Counted from the first letter of the stretch, positions 12,699 to 53,911 are shown. The stretch is 64,000 bases of DNA from Clostridia bacterium (GCA_045635805.1 JAZTWI010000011.1:3905-67904); one strand, 5' to 3'. A program made the numbers and translations. The notes: a model not told the origin generated them from the sequence alone.

Positions 12699-13736
12699 TT
12701 AATTAGTTATATCTAGCACCCAATGTTTAGGAGCTGTTGGCCATACCGAACCATTAATGATATTCTCTGGTACTGCTTCGATTGACTCTACTATTACTTG
12801 GATTTGACCATACTTGCCACCATCTTCGCAGAAAATATTGTCTCCCACAAATTCTAGTTCGCTAAAGAGTTCTATTCTTTGTTGAAATCTAACTATGTCT
12901 TTATAGTAAAAATATCCGTCATCGAATTGCACACCATTTACTATTAGTGATTCATCATCGTGGTTATACCTATACCACATCTCTCCAATATTTGGAGATA
13001 CTATTTCATTTCTTTCTTCGTAGTCAAGAATAACTACAATTTTAAATCTAATATAAATATTTTTTGCAGCATCTGACTGCGATGTTGATGGGTCACCCCT
13101 ATAGTCTTCGGAGTTTCTAGCGTAAGCCCTTAGTGGCAATACATCTCCTGGGGAAATCTCTCTAAGAATCTCTTGACCGGTCTCTGTGACCACACTTAAG
13201 GCAGACTTATTCTCAATCTTCATACTGACTCTGATATCGTATGATTCTTCTTGTCCACCACCAGCATTGCCTAGGAAGAAGATAAAGAATGCAATGAGTG
13301 CTACAACTATAAGCACAAGGATTATAGCAATGATACTTTTGTTTCTCTTACTGCTATCGCCTTTATCTCTCTTAACCTTGGTTCTTGCCTTATCTACAGG
13401 CGCATCATCTAGACCAGAAGCTCTTTTTCTCAGTCTCTCGAGCGCTGCCTGTTCTCTTTCTTTGTCTGTTGGTACATACTCTACTTCGTCTACAATCTCT
13501 GGTCTATTGTTTCTATCGTAAGCAGACCTTGGTTTTGTAACATCTATAGGGTTATTATAATTAGGTGTAGAAGGTCTAGGTGTGGAAGGTGTACTAGGAC
13601 TAGGTGCGCCTGGTCTAGGCGGTCCACTAGAAGAACTAGGGTTTTGCGTACTAGAACTGCTAGTATATGGTGTACTAGGTCTATATGGTGTGCCAGGATT
13701 ACTTGGTGTACCATTAGGATTTCTATTATCTTCCAT
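12699..13736 (-). CDS. Single-pass membrane protein: Pro/Ser-rich cytoplasmic N-terminus, one TM helix and a TasA-like ectodomain
   Basis: Residues 1 to about 60 are low-complexity (PSNPGTPYRPSTPYTSSSS...PSTPSTPRPSTP). The TM helix is IIAIILVLIVVALIAFFIFFL. The ectodomain shares IYIRFKIVV, GYFYYKD and a C-terminal IQVIVESIEAV strand with the three upstream subunits. Confidence 0.6.
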   Translation of the reverse strand: MEDNRNPNGTPSNPGTPYRPSTPYTSSSSTQNPSSSSGPPRPGAPSPSTPSTPRPSTPNYNNPIDVTKPRSAYDRNNRPEIVDEVEYVPTDKEREQAALERLRKRASGLDDAPVDKARTKVKRDKGDSSKRNKSIIAIILVLIVVALIAFFIFFLGNAGGGQEESYDIRVSMKIENKSALSVVTETGQEILREISPGDVLPLRAYARNSEDYRGDPSTSQSDAAKNIYIRFKIVVILDYEERNEIVSPNIGEMWYRYNHDDESLIVNGVQFDDGYFYYKDIVRFQQRIELFSELEFVGDNIFCEDGGKYGQIQVIVESIEAVPENIINGSVWPTAPKHWVLDITN

Positions 13737-13801
13737 GCTCTCTACCTCCTTTTTATCTATTCACCCTGCACTTTGGGTGTTGTTTTCAAATTAATATATT
13801 A

Positions 13802-14632
13802 CTATGCTGTAGTTGGGATATCTTCTATATCGCCTAGTTCAAAGTTCCACCAAGGGCCATAGCCTTCGTACTCAAGTGGGTCTGGAACGTTCTGAACCTG
13901 TATTGCTTCTACTACATAATTAATGTGTATCTTACAGTTTGCTTGTGCATTTGTAATATTTATTTTACTAAGAGCAATATATCCGTCTATAAATACGAAT
14001 TGTTCCATATCATATGCAACTCTAGCATATGTTTTACCTGAAATGTCTGTGGTCTTTAATACAAACCAAATATCGGTTGGCTTGTCTGCTTCATCGCCTT
14101 CAAATTCGGCATATTTATTGAAGTCTACACTCTGCCAAACACTAGCATCTGGTGCGTCTTCGTACTCAATCTGTCCCTTATCTGCAAGGTCCTGAAGTTC
14201 ACTAACTTCGCCTGTGTAGATATTCTCATAGAATACCTGTAATTTAACTCTAACATATGCTGGAGATGATGTAGTTACTCCATCACCTATCTGCATACCT
14301 AGTCGCATTTTGATTTTATCTCCAGGATAAACCCTGGTATTGAATTCTTCTAGAATATCGGTCTTGGTTGTATGTTCTAATACTACTTGACCATTTTTGT
14401 CTAGTACAAAATTACCATCGGCATCTCTACTCTCAGTAAATTCTGTTATGTAGATATTAACAGGATTAGAAAGGATAATATCGGCTGTATCTGACCTGGT
14501 TCTAATATACCAAGCAGCAGTAGACGACACAACAAGCATTACCACTATTAAAATGGCTAGTGCTAATATTATCATATTCTGCGTTTGAATTTTCCTTTTG
14601 TACTCTTGGGCACTCAATGTTTTCTTTGCCAT
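13802..14632 (-). CDS. TasA/BsaA-like secreted matrix/fibre subunit 3 with a SipW-type signal peptide
   Basis: The N-terminal TM helix ends in STAAWYIRTRSD (compare the TasA-type ...AYFSD). It also has AYVRVKLQV and a C-terminal NYVVEAIQVQN strand. Confidence 0.6.
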   Translation of the reverse strand: MAKKTLSAQEYKRKIQTQNMIILALAILIVVMLVVSSTAAWYIRTRSDTADIILSNPVNIYITEFTESRDADGNFVLDKNGQVVLEHTTKTDILEEFNTRVYPGDKIKMRLGMQIGDGVTTSSPAYVRVKLQVFYENIYTGEVSELQDLADKGQIEYEDAPDASVWQSVDFNKYAEFEGDEADKPTDIWFVLKTTDISGKTYARVAYDMEQFVFIDGYIALSKINITNAQANCKIHINYVVEAIQVQNVPDPLEYEGYGPWWNFELGDIEDIPTTA

Positions 14633-14666
14633 ATTTCCTTCCTTTCTATTCTCTAGTTAATTTCTA

Positions 14667-15341
14667 TTAGTCATCTGGATTATATATTTTACTCTCATCT
14701 TGTAAAACAAAGTCTTTAAATATCTTTGGGCTGGTTATCCAGTCACCTTTTGCATCGGCAGAAGCCCCGTATTGTCTCTGGATTGTCTCAAAGTATAATG
14801 TGATTTGACAAGGCTCTCCTGCTTTTTCATTATATAATGTATTGTCTACATAGTACCCAGCATTAAACTGAGTACCGATATCGTCTACACAGCCTAGATA
14901 ATAATAAAAGTCGTCGCCCTCATTATAAACCCACTTTTTCTCTTCTCCTGATGAATAAGTTGCGGCTGTTGTAAATTTGTTGCTATCAAAATATAATGTT
15001 ATCTCTGGTCTATTAGTCGTATATCTAACTCTAACATACGCACCATCGATATTGTGTTTTTCGCTAGTTTTAATATAAGTACCTATGTCCTGACCGTCTT
15101 TGTCTACTAGATAGGTAGTATCTGGAGCAAGGACTAGGTTTCGCAAGTTAAAATTGGTTGTAATATCTAAATCAAGGGTACCGATAATTGATACTGATGG
15201 GTCTGGGTTTGACGTAGTGGAAGTATCTTCTAACCAAGAAGTAGTTACTCTCACCACACCCCACACAAAAGCCACTAGTAGTAGGAGAACTACTACTATA
15301 TAAGTAAAGTAATTAAACTTTGACTTTTGCCCTAGTTTCAT
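14667..15341 (-). CDS. TasA/BsaA-like secreted matrix/fibre subunit 2 with a SipW-type signal peptide
   Basis: The signal region ends in TTSWLEDTSTTS, the closest match to the SipW-dependent signal consensus. It also has GAYVRVRY and a C-terminal YFETIQRQ strand. Confidence 0.65.
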   Translation of the reverse strand: MKLGQKSKFNYFTYIVVVLLLLVAFVWGVVRVTTSWLEDTSTTSNPDPSVSIIGTLDLDITTNFNLRNLVLAPDTTYLVDKDGQDIGTYIKTSEKHNIDGAYVRVRYTTNRPEITLYFDSNKFTTAATYSSGEEKKWVYNEGDDFYYYLGCVDDIGTQFNAGYYVDNTLYNEKAGEPCQITLYFETIQRQYGASADAKGDWITSPKIFKDFVLQDESKIYNPDD

Positions 15342-15357
15342 AAGTATTTCCTTCTTA

Positions 15358-16221
15358 TTACATCCAGCCTAACCAGCCGGTATTTTCTGCGCCTGACACG
15401 TCACAAGGAATAGTTGAACCAAATGGAAATGCAGGAACAGGAATAAGATTTGTTTCACCTGATGGGTACAAATCTCTCATAAAATCTTCGTCTGGCATAG
15501 TAAATGTGGTATATGCCCTACTCTCACCATCTAAGGTAACTTTACTTAAATTAGATGCTGAGTTTTCATAAATTTTCTTATAAATATTACCAGGGTGTGC
15601 TACAGCGTCTACTGTAACAGACACTAGTATTTCGGTATTTTCGTAGCCTGTAGGTACTGTGATTTGTGAAATAATAGGTATCTCTCTATCGCTAGAAGTC
15701 TCGCCATTTAGAGTATATGGCTCTAATTTTTCACTTAAATACATATAACCACTAGCTACTTGATTATTCTGTGGTAATGCCTGATACCAGCCTGTGGTAT
15801 TCATAGCAATCATTGGTGCACTAGATGGCATCACTTGTGGGATGCCAAGGAGACAAACAATATTATTATTGCCATCTACTATATACACTCTAATAGTTGC
15901 TCTAATGAGCGCATCTACTGTCCCTGTATTTCTAATAGTAAGGCTAAGGTTTCTACTCGTTCCGCCTGTTGGAATTGAGTACGGAGATGTGCACTCCCAT
16001 GTTGTACCATTTTGGTGCTCGGTGGTATGAGTAACATTAGTGCCATTTGCATAGATTTCTACTGCTACTGTACCTATCTCTAAGCCTTCGCTATCTCTAG
16101 TATAATTTCTCTTTAACCACGCGAGAACAGAGCCAACTAGAACACAAGTCACTAGTACAACAGTCACTAGTAGTACTATAAAAGAAACTCTGTGTCTATG
16201 CTCTATTTTCTTTGTGTCCAT
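15358..16221 (-). CDS. TasA/BsaA-like secreted matrix/fibre subunit 1 with a SipW-type signal peptide
   Basis: The start was set at the ATG at 16221, which is 4 nt after AAGGAGAG. The ORF-track start would overlap sipW. The signal region ends in SVLAWLKRNYTRDSE, and the protein contains LSLTIRNTGTVDALIRATIRVY. Confidence 0.6.
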   Translation of the reverse strand: MDTKKIEHRHRVSFIVLLVTVVLVTCVLVGSVLAWLKRNYTRDSEGLEIGTVAVEIYANGTNVTHTTEHQNGTTWECTSPYSIPTGGTSRNLSLTIRNTGTVDALIRATIRVYIVDGNNNIVCLLGIPQVMPSSAPMIAMNTTGWYQALPQNNQVASGYMYLSEKLEPYTLNGETSSDREIPIISQITVPTGYENTEILVSVTVDAVAHPGNIYKKIYENSASNLSKVTLDGESRAYTTFTMPDEDFMRDLYPSGETNLIPVPAFPFGSTIPCDVSGAENTGWLGWM

Positions 16222-16235
16222 AGTTCTCTCCTTTT

Positions 16236-16832
16236 TTATTCTTCGTCGTCGTTTTCGTAGCACTCGATATCGTCTGGATTAAGATTATCTTTTACCCAGA
16301 AAATCACCCAAATAAATGCTACTAATATGATGCTATATATAATAAGCATCATTGTATTAGCCTTGATATACATTACAACATCGCCTAGCCAAGTATAGCA
16401 GTGTTCTTCGTATACCTTACCGACTAATTCTTGTTCACTAAGGATTCCGTCAGGGGTATTACTGTTGTCACCCTGTGTGTACCAGAATCCATTGTCCCAG
16501 GCTTCTCTACTAAAGCCTTCTTCTCCTGGGAGTGGCAAAATTTTACCATTAAAATCTCTCTTACCTTCGATTCTGTGGGTTAAGTAAATTCCACCTTTAT
16601 TCATTGTAACAATATCGCCTAGTTCTAGTTTTTCGTATTCTATAGGTGTAGACATAATTAGACTGCCTACAGGTAGTTTCGGCTCCATAGAACCAGATGA
16701 AACTATCATAAATTTGTAGCCTAGAATTGTGGCTAGTATTATAGATATTAGTAATGAAAAACCAAAGGCTCTAAATAATTTAGACCAGATGTCTTTGAAA
16801 AAACCTTGCTTTTCTAATCTGTAAAATCTCAT
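16236..16832 (-). CDS. sipW: Signal peptidase I, archaeal/ER (SipW) type
   Basis: It has an N-terminal TM helix, the catalytic Ser motif VSSGSMEPKLPVGSLIM, the His motif YLTHRIEG and a C-terminal TM helix plus acidic tail, as in B. subtilis SipW. Confidence 0.8.
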   Translation of the reverse strand: MRFYRLEKQGFFKDIWSKLFRAFGFSLLISIILATILGYKFMIVSSGSMEPKLPVGSLIMSTPIEYEKLELGDIVTMNKGGIYLTHRIEGKRDFNGKILPLPGEEGFSREAWDNGFWYTQGDNSNTPDGILSEQELVGKVYEEHCYTWLGDVVMYIKANTMMLIIYSIILVAFIWVIFWVKDNLNPDDIECYENDDEE

Positions 16833-16932: not shown

Positions 16933-19900
16933 TTAGCCTAGGCTAGGATATTTAGTTGTTGTGATATAACCAAGAGTACCCATTTCAGCCTTTAACTCGT
17001 CTACATTGTAAACTTGCTCTCCTGCTGGGCTTAGGCCTAAGGTTACAGGTCTATCAACAGTATCATCTACTAGATAGTAACAATCAGTAGCTGTAGCCTG
17101 TTCTGAGTACATAATGCCATAAGCGTATACTTGAGCACTACCAGAAGTAGCAGCATATGAGTATCTAACAACCACATAACACTCTGTTACATTTACGTTA
17201 GTAGCGGAAGTGATTGTACATTGTCCTAGTATACCACCCACACTGATTGACTTGGTACCATTTGAACCATAATCAACTATGATTAATGCAGTACTATAAC
17301 ACTTATTAATAGTTACGTTAGAAGCGATTACTTCGGCAGCGATACCACCAAGTAGACCACCCCTGAATACAGTGCTAGTACTTGTGTAACTTCTGTCAGT
17401 AACAGTGATTTGAACAGTCTCGTCTAGGTAACAGTTAGAAACTGTTGATTTCTCTTCGATAGTACCTACGATACCACCGATTTGGTTAGATTTAATAGCA
17501 CCAGAAATTCTCACATCTTCTGTATCATATTCACCAATTAAGTAACAATTACTGATTACTGCATTTTCACCAGACATCTTTCTAGCGATACCACCTACAA
17601 CAGAAGATTTAGCAGATGAGCCATTTTCTAGTGCTGTGATATTAGCAGAAACATATGAATTAGTAATTGTACCCATATTATCTACTACTAAGCCACCTAC
17701 GAATACACCATTATTTGTGCTAGATGGAGTAATAGAAATATTAGAACTCTGAGCATTACTTGCATCATCTGTATCGTTATAGAATGTAACGATATTTACA
17801 TTATCAAGTGTGCCATAGTTATTGATAGCAATACCAGCTACTTGATACTCAAGTGCAGTACTAGATGCTGAGTAATTAATCTGGAAGTCTACGTCCTTGA
17901 TAGTTCCCCTATTATTTAGGATAAATGATAGATATGTAGCTCTAGCATCAGCATAAGGGTTTGCTACAAGTCCGTGGATAGCGAAGTTCTTATCATTTGC
18001 AGCGTCTCTACCTTTGATAGAACCTGTGAAGTTCTCAATGATAGTCCAATCGCTCTGTACATAGACATCACTAACTAGTTTGTAGTGACTCTCTGTGTAA
18101 TTTCTAATGTTATTAAGTTCTGTATCATTATGTATAGTATATGGAATATATGGGCTACCATTACCACTGAAGAATAATGAGAATGCACCATTTACATTGT
18201 ATACATATGTTGCAGACTTATATGAATTAGAAGAAGTCTCTGTAGAATCGTATGCTGTAGCAGTAATAGAGAACTTATAATTACTTGCTACAGATGTTAA
18301 TTTGTAACTAGTTGGAGTGTAAACTTGTGTTCCAACCTTATATGAACTAACAAGGATAGTATCTTTAACATATAAGATATAGTTTGCACCAGCAGTTGCT
18401 TGATAGTAAACAACTACTCTATCTTTGATTTCTTCGTAGTATAGATAATCTGCATCGTATTCAGCATTGTCACCTGCTGCTGCAAAGTTAGGTGAAGCAC
18501 TCATTACTTGACCTACTTTATTAGCAGATTTTACCCAACTTTCTTTGTCTTCTGGAGAAACGTTACCAACAGTATATTCTGCAGTAAGTATGATATTGTA
18601 ACCGGTCTTAACATCGTCTACATTTGTCATACCCCAAGATAGAATACCTGTCTTCTCATCGTAATGTCCATTAGTTGGAGAAGATGGAATAGATATAACT
18701 AATCTATCACTATAACTACTATTTAGTAGTGCTCTATATGTCTCTACACTACCTAGCTCGATAGTCTTAGATGGGTCGCTAGGGTCTGGCATAGACTCTG
18801 TTACCCAAGAACCAGACTCATCATAAGTACTAGTCTTTAAGTGACCAATTGCTTGTGCAAAGGCAAATACTTGTAAGCCTTCGTTAGTGTCATTTACGTT
18901 GATATTTTGAAGTAGTGCATTTAGTTTAAATCTAATCTCACTGCCTTCGGTCTCGAAATATTCGTTATTTGCCCAAGGTTGACTATATACTGTAATAGTG
19001 TCTTGAACATTAGGATTTACAATCTCAATAGTTGCTGTGCCATCGCCTTCTTTGATGATTGTATATGTGTGGATTGTCTCACCCACAAAGAATTTAAGTT
19101 TGTATGCTTTAGCGCTGTCGTTCCAAGTCCAATAGATTCTATTTTCTTCGTTTGCTGTAGCATTAATAACGTTTTTGAGTGTTGGTGCAGGAATTTTAGA
19201 TACATAGTAAGTCTTAAGCTCACTAGCTAGGTAGAATTGTTTACCTGCGTTAGCCATATCATCACTAGAACCCTGAGTTCCTTTATACATAATAGTAATA
19301 GTATGCGCACCTGATGGGAACAATGTCTCATTATCACTCGCATCATATGATGCTTGGTTAGCACTAGTTACTTCTGTGAAGTATGGATAAGATAGAACTG
19401 AATTATCAGCAAGTGATTTCTCTACCCCGTCGATTGTGAGTACACTAGCTGTAACTGATTGTCCAGCAAGAGCATCACCTGCAGCGCCCCACTCAAATAC
19501 ACCATTTGTTACCCTTGGTACAGGAGCTGCAATCTTTGTAACTGATGTAGATGTAGAGAAACTACTATTAATGTATCCACTGTCTGCTACTGCAATAGCC
19601 TTAATCTTCATACTGATAGTACCAAGTAGACTATCTAGAATATCAATCTGTGGATAGTTATTAGATGTAGCGTCTAAATCATCTTTGTTGCTACCCTGAT
19701 ATGAAATAGCGTAGTTATTAACTGTGCCATCATATTGTGTTAATTCGTTCCAAGAGATTTGACCCCTATCATTAACAACAATCTTAGTAGGTATAGCAAG
19801 TCTAAAGTATCTACCTGTAATCATTGACTTGATTTCGGTTGCATCGGTTGGATTGTAGAACTGAGTATTTGTTGCTGTAGATACGTTATTTGAATTAAAG

Positions 19901-41391: not shown

Positions 41392-42063
41392 ATGGAATTA
41401 AAAAGTTACGAAGCATATGGCCTAACACTAGCCCTTGCAGGTAATATGGAAGGCGTTAGCGTTACTAGAGTATCTATACCAATAGTGGGCAAATCAATGT
41501 ACGCTATATCATCAGAAGATGGCAAAGTAGATATATCTATCAATCCAGAAGAACAAGAAGAATATATGGATACATTTAGAGATGGAATTGCCCAACTCTA
41601 TAATTATTCGCACAGAGAGAAAACATCTCCTGAGAAATTAGAAACAGATAGAGTGCTTGAGATGAGAACGGTAGATGTACTCAATCAAAATAAATACCAT
41701 ATAGCAGACTATGCCCCTAATCCACCAATGAGACTAAGGGGTACATATACGAGTTACTTAGATATGTTTAAAAGGACAGAATTTGCTAGTCCTGACTTTG
41801 CAATGATGCACACAGCAGTAACTCTATCTGCTAGTCTATACCACGACTTAAATACCACAACTATTAGTGAAATGCTAAAGGCACTCAAGTCCAACCGTGA
41901 GTCGGTAGAAGATTATATGGAGATGGGTGACGAACTAATGGAACTACAGTCCCTAGTAGATAATGGTATGGCAGGAGATATTTACGAAGCCTTCCGTATT
42001 CTACACCAAGACGAAATAATGGAAGATGATGAAGACGAAAACACCCCTGGCAATGGCAAATAA
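41392..42063 (+). CDS. Orphan 223-aa acidic cytoplasmic protein, unknown function
   Basis: A long ORF with host-like codon usage, a strong promoter and its own terminator. I recognise no motif. The RBS spacing is ambiguous. Confidence 0.55.
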   Translation: MELKSYEAYGLTLALAGNMEGVSVTRVSIPIVGKSMYAISSEDGKVDISINPEEQEEYMDTFRDGIAQLYNYSHREKTSPEKLETDRVLEMRTVDVLNQNKYHIADYAPNPPMRLRGTYTSYLDMFKRTEFASPDFAMMHTAVTLSASLYHDLNTTTISEMLKALKSNRESVEDYMEMGDELMELQSLVDNGMAGDIYEAFRILHQDEIMEDDEDENTPGNGK

Positions 42064-42064
42064 A

Positions 42065-42093
42065 AGAAGTCTATTTATAAGACTTCTTTTTTT
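42065..42093 (+). terminator. Intrinsic terminator
   Basis: AGAAGTCT-atttata-AGACTTCT followed by T7. Confidence 0.75.
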
Positions 42094-42190
42094 CGACTTT
42101 TTTCGACTTTTATATAAAATTTATGGCTATATTGCGATACTCAAACTCTAATATTTGTTTTGTTGTAGAATTCGACTTTTTTCGACCTTT
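42092..42190. repeat. Four copies of a 10-bp unit TTCGAC(T/C)TTT, in two tandem pairs
   Basis: Copies lie at 42092-42101, 42102-42111, 42171-42180 and 42181-42190. The fourth copy has one substitution. Confidence 0.8.
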
Positions 42191-42370
42191 TGGGGTAAAT
42201 AATGGCTAGTTTTCGTTGTGGCTAAGTCGTATTTTAATGACACATATCTAGTTATTTTCTGACAAGAAGTGAAAAAATAATGACAACTTTTAAGACTTAC
42301 GCCCTAAAAACAAAAATAAAAAAGCACCCCATTTTGAGTGCTTTCTTTACCTATACTTTTAAATTAAAAA

Positions 42371-42580
42371 TTAACCTAAGTATCTAGAAAAAGTATCGTA
42401 CGATGTTCTCTCGTCTATATCTCTGGTCCATTCTAAATTGTCTAATTTTGATTCAAGTAATTCGACCAAGAACTCTTTCTGAAGGTAATCACTAGAGCTA
42501 AAGTCTGCGTCCATTCTGGCTTCTCTAGCACGGAATAATTCTTCTCTAGTGTTTGCTATCATAAGAGATATCTCTTCCAC
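42371..42580 (-). CDS. Orphan 69-aa acidic helical protein (GTG start)
   Basis: AAAGGAG lies 9 nt upstream of the GTG. A TTGTAT-17-TGaTATAAT promoter lies upstream and a hairpin terminator (about 42318-42350) downstream. Confidence 0.45.
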   Translation of the reverse strand: MEEISLMIANTREELFRAREARMDADFSSSDYLQKEFLVELLESKLDNLEWTRDIDERTSYDTFSRYLG

Positions 42581-42800
42581 GATTACAAACTCCTTTCGGG
42601 GTCTCCCATGCAGATAAGTAAAGTGTATTTTTATCTTAACCCCTACACATATATTATATCATATTACATCACAAAATACAAGTATTTTGTCCTTTTATTA
42701 TAGCATATGAAAATATATAAAAAATTGCTACAATTAGCCATTATTTTAGGGTGAAAAACTACATAAAAAATAAAAAATAAAAAAACATTAAGTCCAATGC

Positions 42801-42837
42801 AAAAAAGAGTATAGAAAATTTTCCTATACTCTTTTTA
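42801..42837. terminator. Bidirectional terminator downstream of the beta-helix lipoprotein gene
   Basis: aaaaaAGAGTATAGaaaattttcCTATACTCTtttt. Confidence 0.7.
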
Positions 42838-42845
42838 CAAAATAA

Positions 42846-44039
42846 TTATGCTTTTGTTACATTATTTCCAACAGCAATAGCATTACCATCATAAGAATTA
42901 CCTTCAATGGTAACTGTTGAACTATTAGTATTTGTTGCCTTAATAACTTCACTATTAGCCTCTGTATTGTTTGCACTTGATAAAATATTATTTCTAATTG
43001 TCAACACTGTAGTATCATCAAACGAATCTAAACGCATTGAACGGCTTCCTGTATTAGATATAGTATTGCCTTCGATTAAAATTGTGCCAAGATTCTTTGT
43101 ATATACGCTAGAATTTTCTGCAGAACGCTCTGAAGAAATATTTACACCATTGAAGCCTGTTCCATTAATAACATTATTACGAATAGTTGCGCCTTGCACA
43201 TTTTGAAGATAAATGGCACTATCATCTGTTTCAGTAAAGACATTTCCTTCAATAGTAATATTTTTTACATAATAAGTTTTGCTTAAACCACTTGTTGTTT
43301 CACTTACATAATCACCTGTTGCATCTCCACTAATGTCTGATGGCAATACAATAATGTTCGCTCCGTCAACAAAATTACAACCGGTTATTGTTAGGTCTTC
43401 TATAATACCATTGTGAACAAAAACACCATCGGTAAATTTAATTTGCTCAAATGTCCAACCTTTTCCAAGAACTTGTTGTGGAGCAACAGGTGTTCCCCAA
43501 TGGTAATCATCACCACTAGAGATAACAACTCCATTAACATTAGTACCATTTACTCCAACTACCCTTATATTATCTACAAAAGTTGTTCCCCTAAGTTCAA
43601 TTGAAGAATAATCTCCAGCAGATAAAACAACTATTGAATTTTCTGCTGCTGAATTTAATTTGCTTAACACATCATTTGTATTTGCTATAACATAATTTGT
43701 AAGTTCAGTTTTTACACTATCTCCATGTGCACAAGTCTCAACCTTGTACGCCTTTGTTCCTTCAATAGCATAAGTATATTGACCACTTAAATCATGTCCA
43801 GATGCTGTAAGCACCCAACTATCTTTCGCTATCTCTGTTTTACCTTCTGCATCTGAGAAATATTTATCGCAACCTGTACAATCATAATATTCGCTATTTC
43901 CTGTATTTTCGCAAGTAACTGCTGTAGCAGTTATTTTCTCTAGTGTGTGTTTATGTGGTTCTTCTCCACAGCCTGTCATCATAAATATACTAGCAACCCC
44001 TACAGGTACTGCTAGTAGCAGACTCTTCCATTTCTTCAT
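42846..44039 (-). CDS. Surface lipoprotein with right-handed parallel beta-helix (PbH1-type) repeats
   Basis: The lipobox is IFMMTGC. Repeated turns include ITIEGNVFTE, ATIRNNVINGTGFNGVNISS, ILIEGNTISNTGSRSMRL, LTIRNNILSS and VTIEGNSYDGN. Codon usage differs from that of the neighbouring genes. Confidence 0.7.
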   Translation of the reverse strand: MKKWKSLLLAVPVGVASIFMMTGCGEEPHKHTLEKITATAVTCENTGNSEYYDCTGCDKYFSDAEGKTEIAKDSWVLTASGHDLSGQYTYAIEGTKAYKVETCAHGDSVKTELTNYVIANTNDVLSKLNSAAENSIVVLSAGDYSSIELRGTTFVDNIRVVGVNGTNVNGVVISSGDDYHWGTPVAPQQVLGKGWTFEQIKFTDGVFVHNGIIEDLTITGCNFVDGANIIVLPSDISGDATGDYVSETTSGLSKTYYVKNITIEGNVFTETDDSAIYLQNVQGATIRNNVINGTGFNGVNISSERSAENSSVYTKNLGTILIEGNTISNTGSRSMRLDSFDDTTVLTIRNNILSSANNTEANSEVIKATNTNSSTVTIEGNSYDGNAIAVGNNVTKA

Positions 44040-44078
44040 ATTTATCTCCTTTTTATTTTAATAATACTATTATACCCC

Positions 44079-44109
44079 CCCCCCGAACAGAATTGTCAAA
44101 CCTATTATA
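44079..44109 (-). promoter_or_regulatory. Promoter with a G10 homopolymer in the -35/-10 spacer
   Basis: The minus strand reads TTGACA (44109-44104), attctgttc, G10 (44094-44085), then TATAAT (44084-44079). The spacer is 19 nt. An AAGGAG RBS and the ATG at 44039 follow. Confidence 0.7.
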
Positions 44110-44173
44110 TAAACTAAATAATACATAATATGCTTTATGGGGTGGGGTATGTTTATTTTAACTAAATAACAAT

Positions 44174-44216
44174 AAAAAACCACACAAAAGAACTTCTTTT
44201 ACTGTTGTGTGGTTTA
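44174..44216 (-). terminator. Terminator downstream of the 44238 gene
   Basis: AACCACACAA...TTGTGTGGTT stem with a T-run on the minus strand. Confidence 0.6.
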
Positions 44217-44237
44217 AAACTATTTTATCTATTTTAT

Positions 44238-44774
44238 TTATTTACCTACTGCCTTTAGGTATAGGACAGGAATAGCAATTAGAGCACCAACTAGTGCAAG
44301 GCTTAGGAGCATTGTAATTAGTCCGATTGCATTGTCTAGAGCTGGGGATTTTTTTGTTGTTTCTTCTATAGACGTGGTCTCCATAGACTCTCCTGCCACC
44401 ATCTCTTCTTTTTCTTCCACAGACTCTTTTTTATCTAACTTTCTATTCTCTCTTTTTATCTTTCTAGCACTAGCAAAAGCTGCTAGAGAAGTCTTTGATA
44501 AAAAGCCAAAACTATGTATGCCTATGTACGCAGTAACAGGTATACTAATAATCAGTACTAGTAGTCTTTGCCCTTCAAAAGCACCCCTAAATATAGTCTC
44601 ACAGATAATCAATTCACCTGCCACACTAGCAAGTGCCATTAGTGTAAATATTGTAGTAAAGAAAATCTTTCCAAAATTACTTCTGCCACCATATATTTTA
44701 CGATAACTTCTGTATCTAAATCCTACAGTTAAAATACGCCAAATCAGCCTTAAAGGTTTAAAAATCATAAACAA
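44238..44774 (-). CDS. Membrane protein, unknown function
   Basis: 178 aa with 3-4 hydrophobic helices and a central acidic loop. Confidence 0.5.
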   Translation of the reverse strand: MFMIFKPLRLIWRILTVGFRYRSYRKIYGGRSNFGKIFFTTIFTLMALASVAGELIICETIFRGAFEGQRLLVLIISIPVTAYIGIHSFGFLSKTSLAAFASARKIKRENRKLDKKESVEEKEEMVAGESMETTSIEETTKKSPALDNAIGLITMLLSLALVGALIAIPVLYLKAVGK

Positions 44775-53291: not shown

Positions 53292-53416
53292 TACTTTATT
53301 ATATGGGAAGTAAAGTATTGCATTAAGAAAACTCACGCTCTATATATTTATAGCAAACATAGAAAGTGGTATTCTTATGTAAAAAGAAAAATGGGGAAAA
53401 TTATGGTGGATATAAT

Positions 53417-53911
53417 ATGGGTAAAAAATTTAAGAAAATTATGGCTATAGGATTTTTTCCTGTAGTCATTTTTTATTACATAATTAGGTGTATATATAAG
53501 TTAATAGAAAAGCGTATAGCAGGTAAGTACATAGCGTCTATCACGATTGATGAGATAGACGGACTAGACGGAGAAGACTTTGAAGAACTCCTTGCCCTAC
53601 TCTTTAGACAACACGGACTAAAGGTGACTAAGACTAAGAAATCTCACGACTATGGTGCCGACCTACTAGTAAGTAGTAAGGACGAAATCATTGCAATTCA
53701 GTGTAAACTCTACTATAATCGCTCGGTTAGTAATTCGGCTGTGCAGGAGATTGCTACTGCCAAGGACTACTATCAGGCCAGTCGTGCAGTTGTGATAACC
53801 AATAGTAAATTTACTAAACCTGCAGAAAACCTAGCAGGTAAAATAGGTGTAAAACTGATAGACAGAGAGACCTTGCAAACACTACTTACTAGCAAAACTA
53901 TAGATATTTAA
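53417..53911 (+). CDS. Membrane-tethered Mrr-like restriction endonuclease domain protein
   Basis: The start was set at the ATG at 53417. An N-terminal TM helix is followed by DGEDFEELLALLFRQHGL...HDYGADLLV...IAIQCKLY...VSNSAVQEI, matching the Mrr_cat (PD-(D/E)xK) pattern. Confidence 0.6.
   Translation: MGKKFKKIMAIGFFPVVIFYYIIRCIYKLIEKRIAGKYIASITIDEIDGLDGEDFEELLALLFRQHGLKVTKTKKSHDYGADLLVSSKDEIIAIQCKLYYNRSVSNSAVQEIATAKDYYQASRAVVITNSKFTKPAENLAGKIGVKLIDRETLQTLLTSKTIDI

Follow-up and report, generated by a model that had tools for sequence, protein, structure and literature searches.

A G10 tract in the promoter spacer of a lipoprotein gene is a candidate slipped-strand switch in a gut Clostridia bacterium

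We identify a homopolymer of ten G residues (G10) between the -35 and -10 hexamers of a lipoprotein gene promoter in a 64-kb stretch of DNA from a Clostridia bacterium (JAZTWI010000011.1:3905-67904; 64,000 nucleotides (nt), analysed whole and called the window here). The gene lies on the minus strand and encodes a protein of 397 amino acids (aa). We propose that the locus is a credible slipped-strand promoter switch of the kind described for porA and tp0126, and we place the probability that change in tract length modulates expression of this gene in natural populations at roughly 65%. The assembled sequence is probably a low or off state. A phase switch had already been suggested in a preliminary description of the window; that reading is supported as a candidate, by evidence that is substantial although indirect, and nothing we found contradicts the mechanism it proposed. 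Slippage at the locus, transcription that depends on the number of G residues and any adaptive value are inferred from the analyses set out below.

In full, the minus-strand promoter reads tTTGACAattctgttcGGGGGGGGGGTATAATagtattattaaaataaaAAGGAGataaatATG, with its elements in the order TTGACA-attctgttc-GGGGGGGGGG-TATAAT from 44099 to 44069 (Table 1). Transcription would start near 44062, taking the usual distance of ~7 nt past the -10. The layout given in the preliminary description (TTGACA, attctgttc, the G run, TATAAT, AAGGAG and the ATG) is exact on the minus strand at 44099-44039, both hexamers are indeed perfect, and the 9-nt non-repetitive part and G10 do add up to the 19-nt spacer it reported; all of its statements about the sequence proved correct when the window was read again. 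This includes its remark that no comparable G or C run exists elsewhere in the window. The tract is the sole G or C run longer than 5 nt in 64 kb of DNA with a GC content of 35.2%, where base composition predicts ~0.004 runs of at least 10 nt. Shorter G or C runs are themselves under-represented (seven 5-nt runs against 15 expected; one run of at least 6 nt against 3.4 expected), and TRF returned no other contingency-type repeat in the 64-kb window. Perfect TTGACA-N14-22-TATAAT pairs number three where 0.31 would be expected in the window. Of the remaining two, one has a spacer of 17 nt and stands directly upstream of the neighbouring gene at 41392, and the organism therefore uses canonical sigma-70-type promoters with canonical spacing. 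At a distance of 17 nt from the -10, the G10 state offers no -35-like hexamer: GACAAT, which stands there, matches the consensus at one of six positions. Ten units place the tract in the range (at least ~8) in which homopolymers are hypermutable in length, and it sits between -35 and -10, as in phase variation of the porA / tp0126 type; as in those systems, the gene under control is predicted from its sequence to encode an exported component.

Table 1. Features of the G10 promoter, its gene and surroundings in the window, with the aligned promoters of homologous genes
Feature	Position	Strand	Remarks
Accessory cassette (promoter region, gene, terminator)	~42790..44175		~1.4 kb; missing from closest relatives
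Intrinsic terminator of lipoprotein gene	42802..42836	-	17-nt arms, 94% complementary, 1-nt gap, T run after
Gene for 397-aa lipoprotein	42846..44039	-	Open reading frame from ATG at 44039; signal peptide, Cys-rich ~55-aa module, right-handed beta-helix
Ribosome-binding site AAGGAG	44046..44051	-	6 nt 5' of ATG at 44039
-10 hexamer TATAAT	44069..44074	-	Perfect consensus; aligned with hexamers of homologous promoters
G10 homopolymer, proposed slippage-prone element	44075..44084	-	C10 on plus strand; spacer total 19 nt
Non-repetitive spacer part attctgttc, 9 nt	44085..44093	-	Sequence read
-35 hexamer TTGACA	44094..44099	-	Perfect consensus; aligned with TTGACT and TTGACA in homologous promoters
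C-box ATACCCCACCCC	44139..44150	-	Inverted-repeat partner of G10 and TAT of the -10
Intrinsic terminator of upstream 178-aa membrane-protein gene	44177..44215	-	Arms 44177-44190 and 44202-44215
Window promoter			TTGACAATTCTGTTC-G10-TATAAT; 19-nt spacer
Promoter of L001			TTGACTAATAGTTTTTTGAAGTGG-TATAAT; 18-nt spacer, no tract
Promoters of L002 and L003			TTGACAATACATCACAAAGTGATG-TAAATT; 18-nt spacer, no tract

Expression of the lipoprotein gene appears to hinge on this promoter. The upstream membrane-protein gene stops at 44238 and is followed by an intrinsic terminator with 14-nt arms (93% complementary), an 11-nt loop and a T run, with TTTTTTATT following on the minus strand, and a hairpin is predicted in its fold. 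A consensus scan for spacers of 16-18 nt, a range that leaves the 19-nt G10 promoter outside it, found no other promoter-like minus-strand site between this terminator and the ATG. With a strong terminator upstream that insulates it from read-through and no alternative promoter-like site, the gene therefore depends on the G10 promoter. Across the window, Rfam returned tRNA alone at gathering thresholds and nothing credible in 42050-44250 at E values up to 1, and an RNA element at the locus was set aside on that ground.

The identity of the product as a lipoprotein is well supported by its sequence. Its N-terminus reads MKKWKSLLLAVPVGVASIFMMTG and then C, which gives the lipobox MMTG followed by Cys24, and this Cys is invariant across aligned homologues, whose lipoboxes read LTAC, LVGC and LVAC. 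A signal peptide with a lipobox and an invariant Cys is what marks bacterial lipoproteins as substrates of Lgt and Lsp. Together with a Pfam Beta_helix match (28.4 bits against a cut-off of 25.9), the lipobox bears out the label of beta-helix lipoprotein in the preliminary description; the label of surface antigen is an assumption. No NCBIfam family matches the 397-aa protein. Its AlphaFold2 model (pLDDT 72.5) finds its best Foldseek matches in the polysaccharide lyase RbmB, PL6 alginate lyases and GH110 (E 1e-5 to 1e-4), a likeness at the level of the fold alone (TM-score ~0.35, identity 11-16%). The model thus supports a polysaccharide-lyase-like right-handed beta-helix. The Cys-rich N-terminal module of ~55 aa occurs as tandem copies in proteins P0004-P0009.

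In the mechanism we propose, a sigma-70-type holoenzyme would have to touch the perfect -35 and the perfect -10 together, and the tract would set the distance between them. Slipped-strand mispairing during replication would add or remove G residues and leave mixed lengths in the population. G8 would provide a 17-nt spacer and maximal transcription, G9 an 18-nt spacer and intermediate transcription, and G10, the assembled majority state, a 19-nt spacer with weak or no transcription; G11 would be off. The outcome would be heritable, reversible and stochastic switching of the lipoprotein, either on/off or as volume control, and the population would keep a minority of expressing cells without a regulator. 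In phase variation of this type, switches are reversible and take place at ~1e-5 to 1e-2 per generation. We considered whether poly-G geometry might shift the optimum to 18-19 nt and set this aside, as published poly-G spacers peak at 17 nt.

The same promoter design recurs in many other genomes. We scanned genome (GTDB) and metagenome collections for TTGACA-N6-12-G8-TATAAT, requiring perfect hexamers, and obtained at least 120 matches in GTDB genomes and at least 120 in metagenomes; a model of independent, identically distributed bases predicts 1-8 in the whole 596-Gb genome collection. The class set used here consists of 247 promoters among the matches listed (L011-L250) and is not a random sample; the class figures below refer to these listed matches. 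Their hosts are mostly gut metagenome-assembled genomes (MAGs) and mostly Bacillota, with Oscillospiraceae, Christensenellaceae and Ruminococcus among the Clostridia and Anaeroplasmataceae among the Bacilli, and they extend to Saccharibacteria, Selenomonadales, Treponema and Streptobacillus. By chance, frequency should drop 4- to 6-fold with each extra G, and the listed promoters instead peak at G9-G10 (G8 36, G9 107, G10 62, G11 28, G12 12, G14 2). The commonest layout, which the window promoter shares, is a 9-nt non-G part followed by the run (91 of 247); within it, 11 promoters carry G8, 38 G9, 31 G10 and 11 G11. The base just 5' of the run is C in 62% of the promoters.

Tract length differs between samples within this class. 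Of 20 groups that share the non-G part of the spacer exactly, 12 vary in the number of G residues, as do 16 of 25 multi-member promoter families. In three examples, GAAAATTTC-G8/9/10, ATTTTTCAT-G8/9/10 and AAACTGTTC-G9/G11, promoters with the same flanks in different samples differ in G number alone. At an identity of at least 97% between paired contigs, 24 of 48 pairs disagree in the length of the promoter tract, as do 14 of the 17 pairs whose longer tract is G10; for A/T runs of 7-8 nt in near-identical contig pairs, the share that differs is 12-17%.

Two further properties of the listed promoters point to selection. Signal-peptide or transmembrane (TM)-like N-termini are found in 112 of 171 downstream open reading frames (ORFs) and in 370 of 1570 ORFs taken from those loci as controls (odds ratio 6.2, p 1e-27), a lipobox is present in 33 of the 171 against 69 of the 1570 (p 6e-11), and some downstream products begin with pilin-like GFTLxE N-termini. 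The Cys-rich module of the window lipoprotein, tried as a common target of poly-G promoters, was dropped, being present in 2 of 220 downstream ORFs. Total spacers of 17 nt are depleted, at 9.3% against 17.9% expected from independent non-G and G lengths (p ~4e-4), whereas spacers of 18-19 nt are enriched, and the 19-nt spacer assembled here, the majority state and probably low or off, is the commonest. Promoters with an 8-nt non-G part centre on G10-11 and those with a 9-nt part on G9-10. Because the spacing bias depends on non-G length too, it does not stem from homopolymer calling. This pattern fits selection on total spacer length, with majority genotypes one or two slips from the optimum.

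Some genomes carry two or three such promoters (L120, L092, L063 and a Selenomonadales bin with L046, L080 and L082), and several of these promoters precede tandem paralogues (L092, L100, L121, L063). In viral contigs, where numbers are small, G8 abuts the -10 five times, C8 abuts the -10 in no case and G8 abuts the -35 twice. When A8 replaced G8 in the scanned pattern as a control, many viral contigs of ~18-20 kb were recovered (L258-L309, from IMG/VR sample 3300045988 and others); in these the A8 pattern lies ~105-135 nt from both contig ends in inverted orientation, a consensus promoter in the terminal inverted repeats of a small-phage family.

Phase variation through promoter spacers has well-characterized precedents. 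In Neisseria meningitidis porA, a poly-G tract in the sigma-70 spacer grades expression by its length with an optimum at 17 nt, as summarized in PMC7864442, and the preliminary description's appeal to the poly-G promoter spacers of porA agrees with that summary. The window promoter resembles porA in having poly-G within the spacer of a sigma-70-type promoter that precedes a gene for an exported protein. It differs in that porA encodes an outer-membrane porin of a Gram-negative pathogen, whereas the gene here encodes a lyase-like beta-helix lipoprotein of an uncultured, probably monoderm gut Clostridiales; in addition, the assembled state here is above the optimum rather than at or below it, both hexamers are perfect, and the promoter is known from sequence alone. 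In Treponema pallidum, transcription of tp0126, which encodes an OmpW homologue, is best at a 17-nt poly-G spacing, and tpr-associated tracts range from G7 to G11, mostly G9, with different lengths coexisting within isolates (PMC7864442). That mode matches the G9-G10 mode of the class promoters listed here. Poly-G runs are common in the GC-rich genome of T. pallidum, a spirochaete, in contrast to a single tract in 64 kb at 35% GC here, and at tprE/G/J/L the tract does not set spacing but lies on or next to the -10 or the start site.

Other repeats act in the same position. In Mycoplasma hyorhinis vlp, poly-A in the promoter spacer switches surface lipoproteins through the -35/-10 distance. The vlp system shares with our locus a lipoprotein target in a low-GC bacterium, whereas vlp is a multigene family with variable coding repeats and here a single gene lacks coding repeats. 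TA repeats in the promoter spacer of Haemophilus influenzae hifA/B switch fimbriae through the same distance, a case that is cited in PMC9187656. The repeat unit in vlp and hif is A or TA, and here it is G. Among gut commensals, Bifidobacterium breve uses G10-G12 tracts to control a sortase pilus, with length mixtures in cultures and in vivo and even in single-colony culture, and the same report mentions further G-tracts in promoter spacers in passing (PMC9187656). The B. breve tracts are intragenic and act by frameshift, in contrast to a tract in a promoter spacer. Gut Bacteroides and Clostridioides difficile also switch surface components on and off stochastically and heritably, by means of invertons, whose inverted repeats lie near the promoter. 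An inverton requires a site-specific recombinase and has its repeats on either side of the entire promoter, with segments typically well over 100 bp. Here, the segment between the repeats described below is 55 bp, no recombinase was found in the ORFs scanned, and the repeat includes the spacer itself.

Comparison with relatives shows that the promoter and its gene are set apart from their surroundings. We located the contigs of the nearest relatives (L005-L010) through neighbouring genes; all keep the flanks and lack the whole cassette. In L005-L009 the flanks have 83-89% identity over window positions 42001-42785 and 71-75% for the 178-aa gene, with only ~100 nt between them. Because the relatives retain the flanks without 42790-44175, we regard promoter, gene and terminator as an accessory cassette. 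Its base composition is the same as that of its flanks; a phage origin was rejected on this equality and on the lack of a match in the phage collection. The species was met once across the collections searched and is known solely as a MAG; the window comes from a contig of 74.7 kb, the GyrA of the source clusters with proteins labelled 'MAG: Clostridiales bacterium', and for its GyrB no relative reaches 90% identity. Searches with exact flanks and a variable gap found no second copy of this promoter in GTDB genomes or JGI metagenomes, and an exact-protein look-up found the 397-aa protein nowhere else on record.

Homologous genes at other loci nevertheless allow the promoter to be compared. Among 5.8 billion proteins, two full-length homologues of the lipoprotein were found, at 74% and 52% identity, and both of their genes adjoin a divergent helix-turn-helix (HTH) regulator gene, of which the window contains no homologue. 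Their promoters align with the window promoter hexamer to hexamer and read GAAGTGG and AGTGATG where the window has G10. Because these homologous promoters have 18-nt spacers and lack the tract, we consider G10 to be derived and to have replaced the 3' portion of the spacer. Alignment of both flanks with the promoters in L001-L003 also leaves a misjoin at the tract unsupported, and we conclude from it that the tract is not a misjoin. Since the homologous loci carry an HTH regulator and the cassette does not, the tract may substitute stochastic control for a lost repression. Upstream of the 74%-identity homologue, L001 2030-2250 is a degenerate tandem duplicate of that gene's own promoter and first ~15 codons, in which ATACCCTGCCC occupies the expected place of the -10; the divergent HTH gene, of XRE type, then follows at 1768-2007.

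The tract also takes part in an inverted repeat. Together with the TAT of the -10, it is the complement, save one base, of the C-box at 44150-44139, and ATACCCCNCCCC has only two perfect matches in the window, one at the C-box (44139-44150) and one at 44072-44083 on the plus strand. The 12-nt arms stand 55 nt apart and enclose the -35; ~2e-5 such repeats are expected within 300 nt. The counterpart of the C-box in L001 is ATACCCTGCCC, in an upstream segment that aligns weakly (score 37; shuffled mean 23.6, standard deviation 4.3, best of 500 = 40). Homology of the two is probable on this alignment, and the C-box is apparently old. The G run could have originated in a templated quasi-palindrome mutation, with the C-box copied into the spacer.

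Several points weigh against our proposal that tract length controls the gene. Variability at this locus is extrapolated from the class, with no second sample of the locus and relatives that lack the cassette, and the class set is, as said, not random. The tract is missing from the homologous promoters and could be a recent, incidental feature. Between strains, nine of ten A/T runs of 9-10 nt vary, so that variation is not specific to G; instability is therefore a general property of long homopolymers, and length variation alone is no proof of selection. A consensus promoter in a 19-nt state equally fits a promoter that is being lost, the G at -14, which makes up one half of an extended -10 motif, might dampen any effect of spacing, and the G count in the assembly could be wrong by one. 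Finally, the inverted repeat of which the tract is part greatly exceeds chance expectation but has no place in the spacing model, which also does not account for the preferences of the class for G over C beside the -10 and for C before the run.

The alternative that survives best, which we nonetheless consider unlikely, is a one-off G run in a recently acquired cassette, with a promoter merely weakened by its 19-nt spacer or decaying, slippage that has no selected role, and a gene that is constitutively low or being silenced. It agrees with the lack of a tract in the homologous promoters, with the accessory nature of a cassette that relatives do not have, with the variation of long A/T runs, which needs no selection, and with the complementary C-box 55 nt upstream, which suggests a templated quasi-palindrome origin. 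It is opposed by the condition of the gene, which has an intact ORF, perfect hexamers, a good ribosome-binding site and its own terminator, and by the purging of other G/C runs from the genome. Moreover, the 9 nt plus G9-10 layout is the commonest in a class that is enriched before secreted proteins and avoids 17 nt, which is hard to account for without selection.

An assembly miscount, in which a true G8 or G9 would give an ordinary strong constitutive promoter with a 17-18-nt spacer, is in our view improbable. Homopolymers are hard to call, the B. breve reference carries G11 where cultures are 60% G12 (PMC9187656), and the homologous promoters have 18-nt spacers. The window shows no sign of homopolymer-error frameshifts, its long ORFs being intact up to one of 3478 aa, and the 18-19-nt mode and depletion of 17 nt come from 247 listed promoters that many groups assembled and in which non-G length matters as well. 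A real G8 or G9 would, furthermore, still be hypermutable.

We think it highly improbable that the tract, with or without the C-box, serves as an operator or other protein-binding site, or as a G-quadruplex or i-motif, so that its sequence and not its length would matter. The seeming conservation of the C-box upstream of the L001 homologue is in keeping with such a role, and the preference for G over C beside the -10 in viral contigs (5 versus 0) and for C just before the run (62% of listed promoters) hints that sequence matters beside length. No regulator gene adjoins the cassette, however, and the HTH genes beside the homologous loci have no homologue in the window; a lone G10 is unable to form an intramolecular quadruplex; and length polymorphism with selection on total spacing is what the spacing mechanism predicts and a binding site does not.

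Least probable of all is that ATACCCCACCCC (44150-44139) and GGGGGGGGGGTAT (44084-44072) act as a mini-inverton that uncouples -35 from -10, or through a hairpin or cruciform: the repeat exceeds chance (2e-5 expected), its arms are paired in the predicted RNA fold and an inverted TTGACA would face GGGGTGGGG-TATGTT on the opposite strand, but a Pfam scan of most window ORFs of at least 100 aa revealed no recombinase or invertase domain, the 55-bp segment is well below inverton size, the repeat flanks the -35 alone rather than the whole promoter, a 55-nt loop makes a cruciform unlikely, the strong terminator just upstream leaves little read-through RNA to be expected, and upstream C runs are no feature of the class (C4 in 49 of 239 listed promoters, G4 in 48 of 239). 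We accordingly rejected an inverton, given a 12-nt repeat with one mismatch that has the spacer as one arm.

Returning to slippage in the spacer, we tentatively extend the proposal beyond this locus, in a form that we hold somewhat short of probable. The locus may belong to a large group of phase-variable promoters, so far uncatalogued, that uncultured gut bacteria carry (Clostridia, Bacilli, Saccharibacteria, Selenomonadales and Treponema). In these promoters, G8-G12 abutting a consensus -10, usually after C, would set the -35/-10 distance for secreted, lipoprotein and pilin-like genes. Majority genotypes would lie one or two slips off 17 nt and most cells would be off, giving a stochastic layer of the surface proteome parallel to invertons; here, the tract would perhaps replace a lost HTH repressor.

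Work on stochastic switching in gut anaerobes has focused on invertible promoters. To our knowledge, spacer-repeat phase variation is textbook material for a few pathogens and hardly documented in the uncultured anaerobes that predominate in animal guts; the literature searched contained no description of poly-G spacer promoters in gut Clostridia, which is not proof of novelty. The locus itself joins a known kind of switch; of more interest are the wide occurrence of the design among uncultured gut bacteria and its avoidance of 17 nt. If the proposal is true, strain-level expression of surface enzymes and adhesins could not be read from gene content alone, with phage receptor availability, glycan foraging and immune recognition as candidate consequences. 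The class pattern of hundreds of promoters, length polymorphism between samples and 17-nt avoidance is directly testable in public read sets.

The rest of the window contains housekeeping genes and many orphan proteins. Near the cassette, a block of ~320 nt (42340-42665) has essentially 100% identity between the window and L005, L006, L008 and L009, where the flanking protein genes reach 72-89%. The block holds a small ORF at 42371-42580 on the minus strand (69 aa, or 63 aa from the first ATG) with an upstream region and a terminator, matches nothing in Pfam, NCBIfam or Rfam, and could be an ultra-conserved small protein, an RNA or a recent exchange. Downstream of a 223-aa gene, intergenic TTTTTTCGAC(C) motifs are repeated at 42088-42111 and 42171-42191; relatives keep them in number and sequence, and they may form a protein-binding array. 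An intact minus-strand ORF of 3478 aa at 16933-27369, with no Pfam domain at E values up to 1e-4, encodes a giant orphan within a series of orphan genes (12699-16832). A gene with an Mrr-type restriction endonuclease domain lies at 53366-53911 on the plus strand and occupies the same position in the relative L005 (from 20658).

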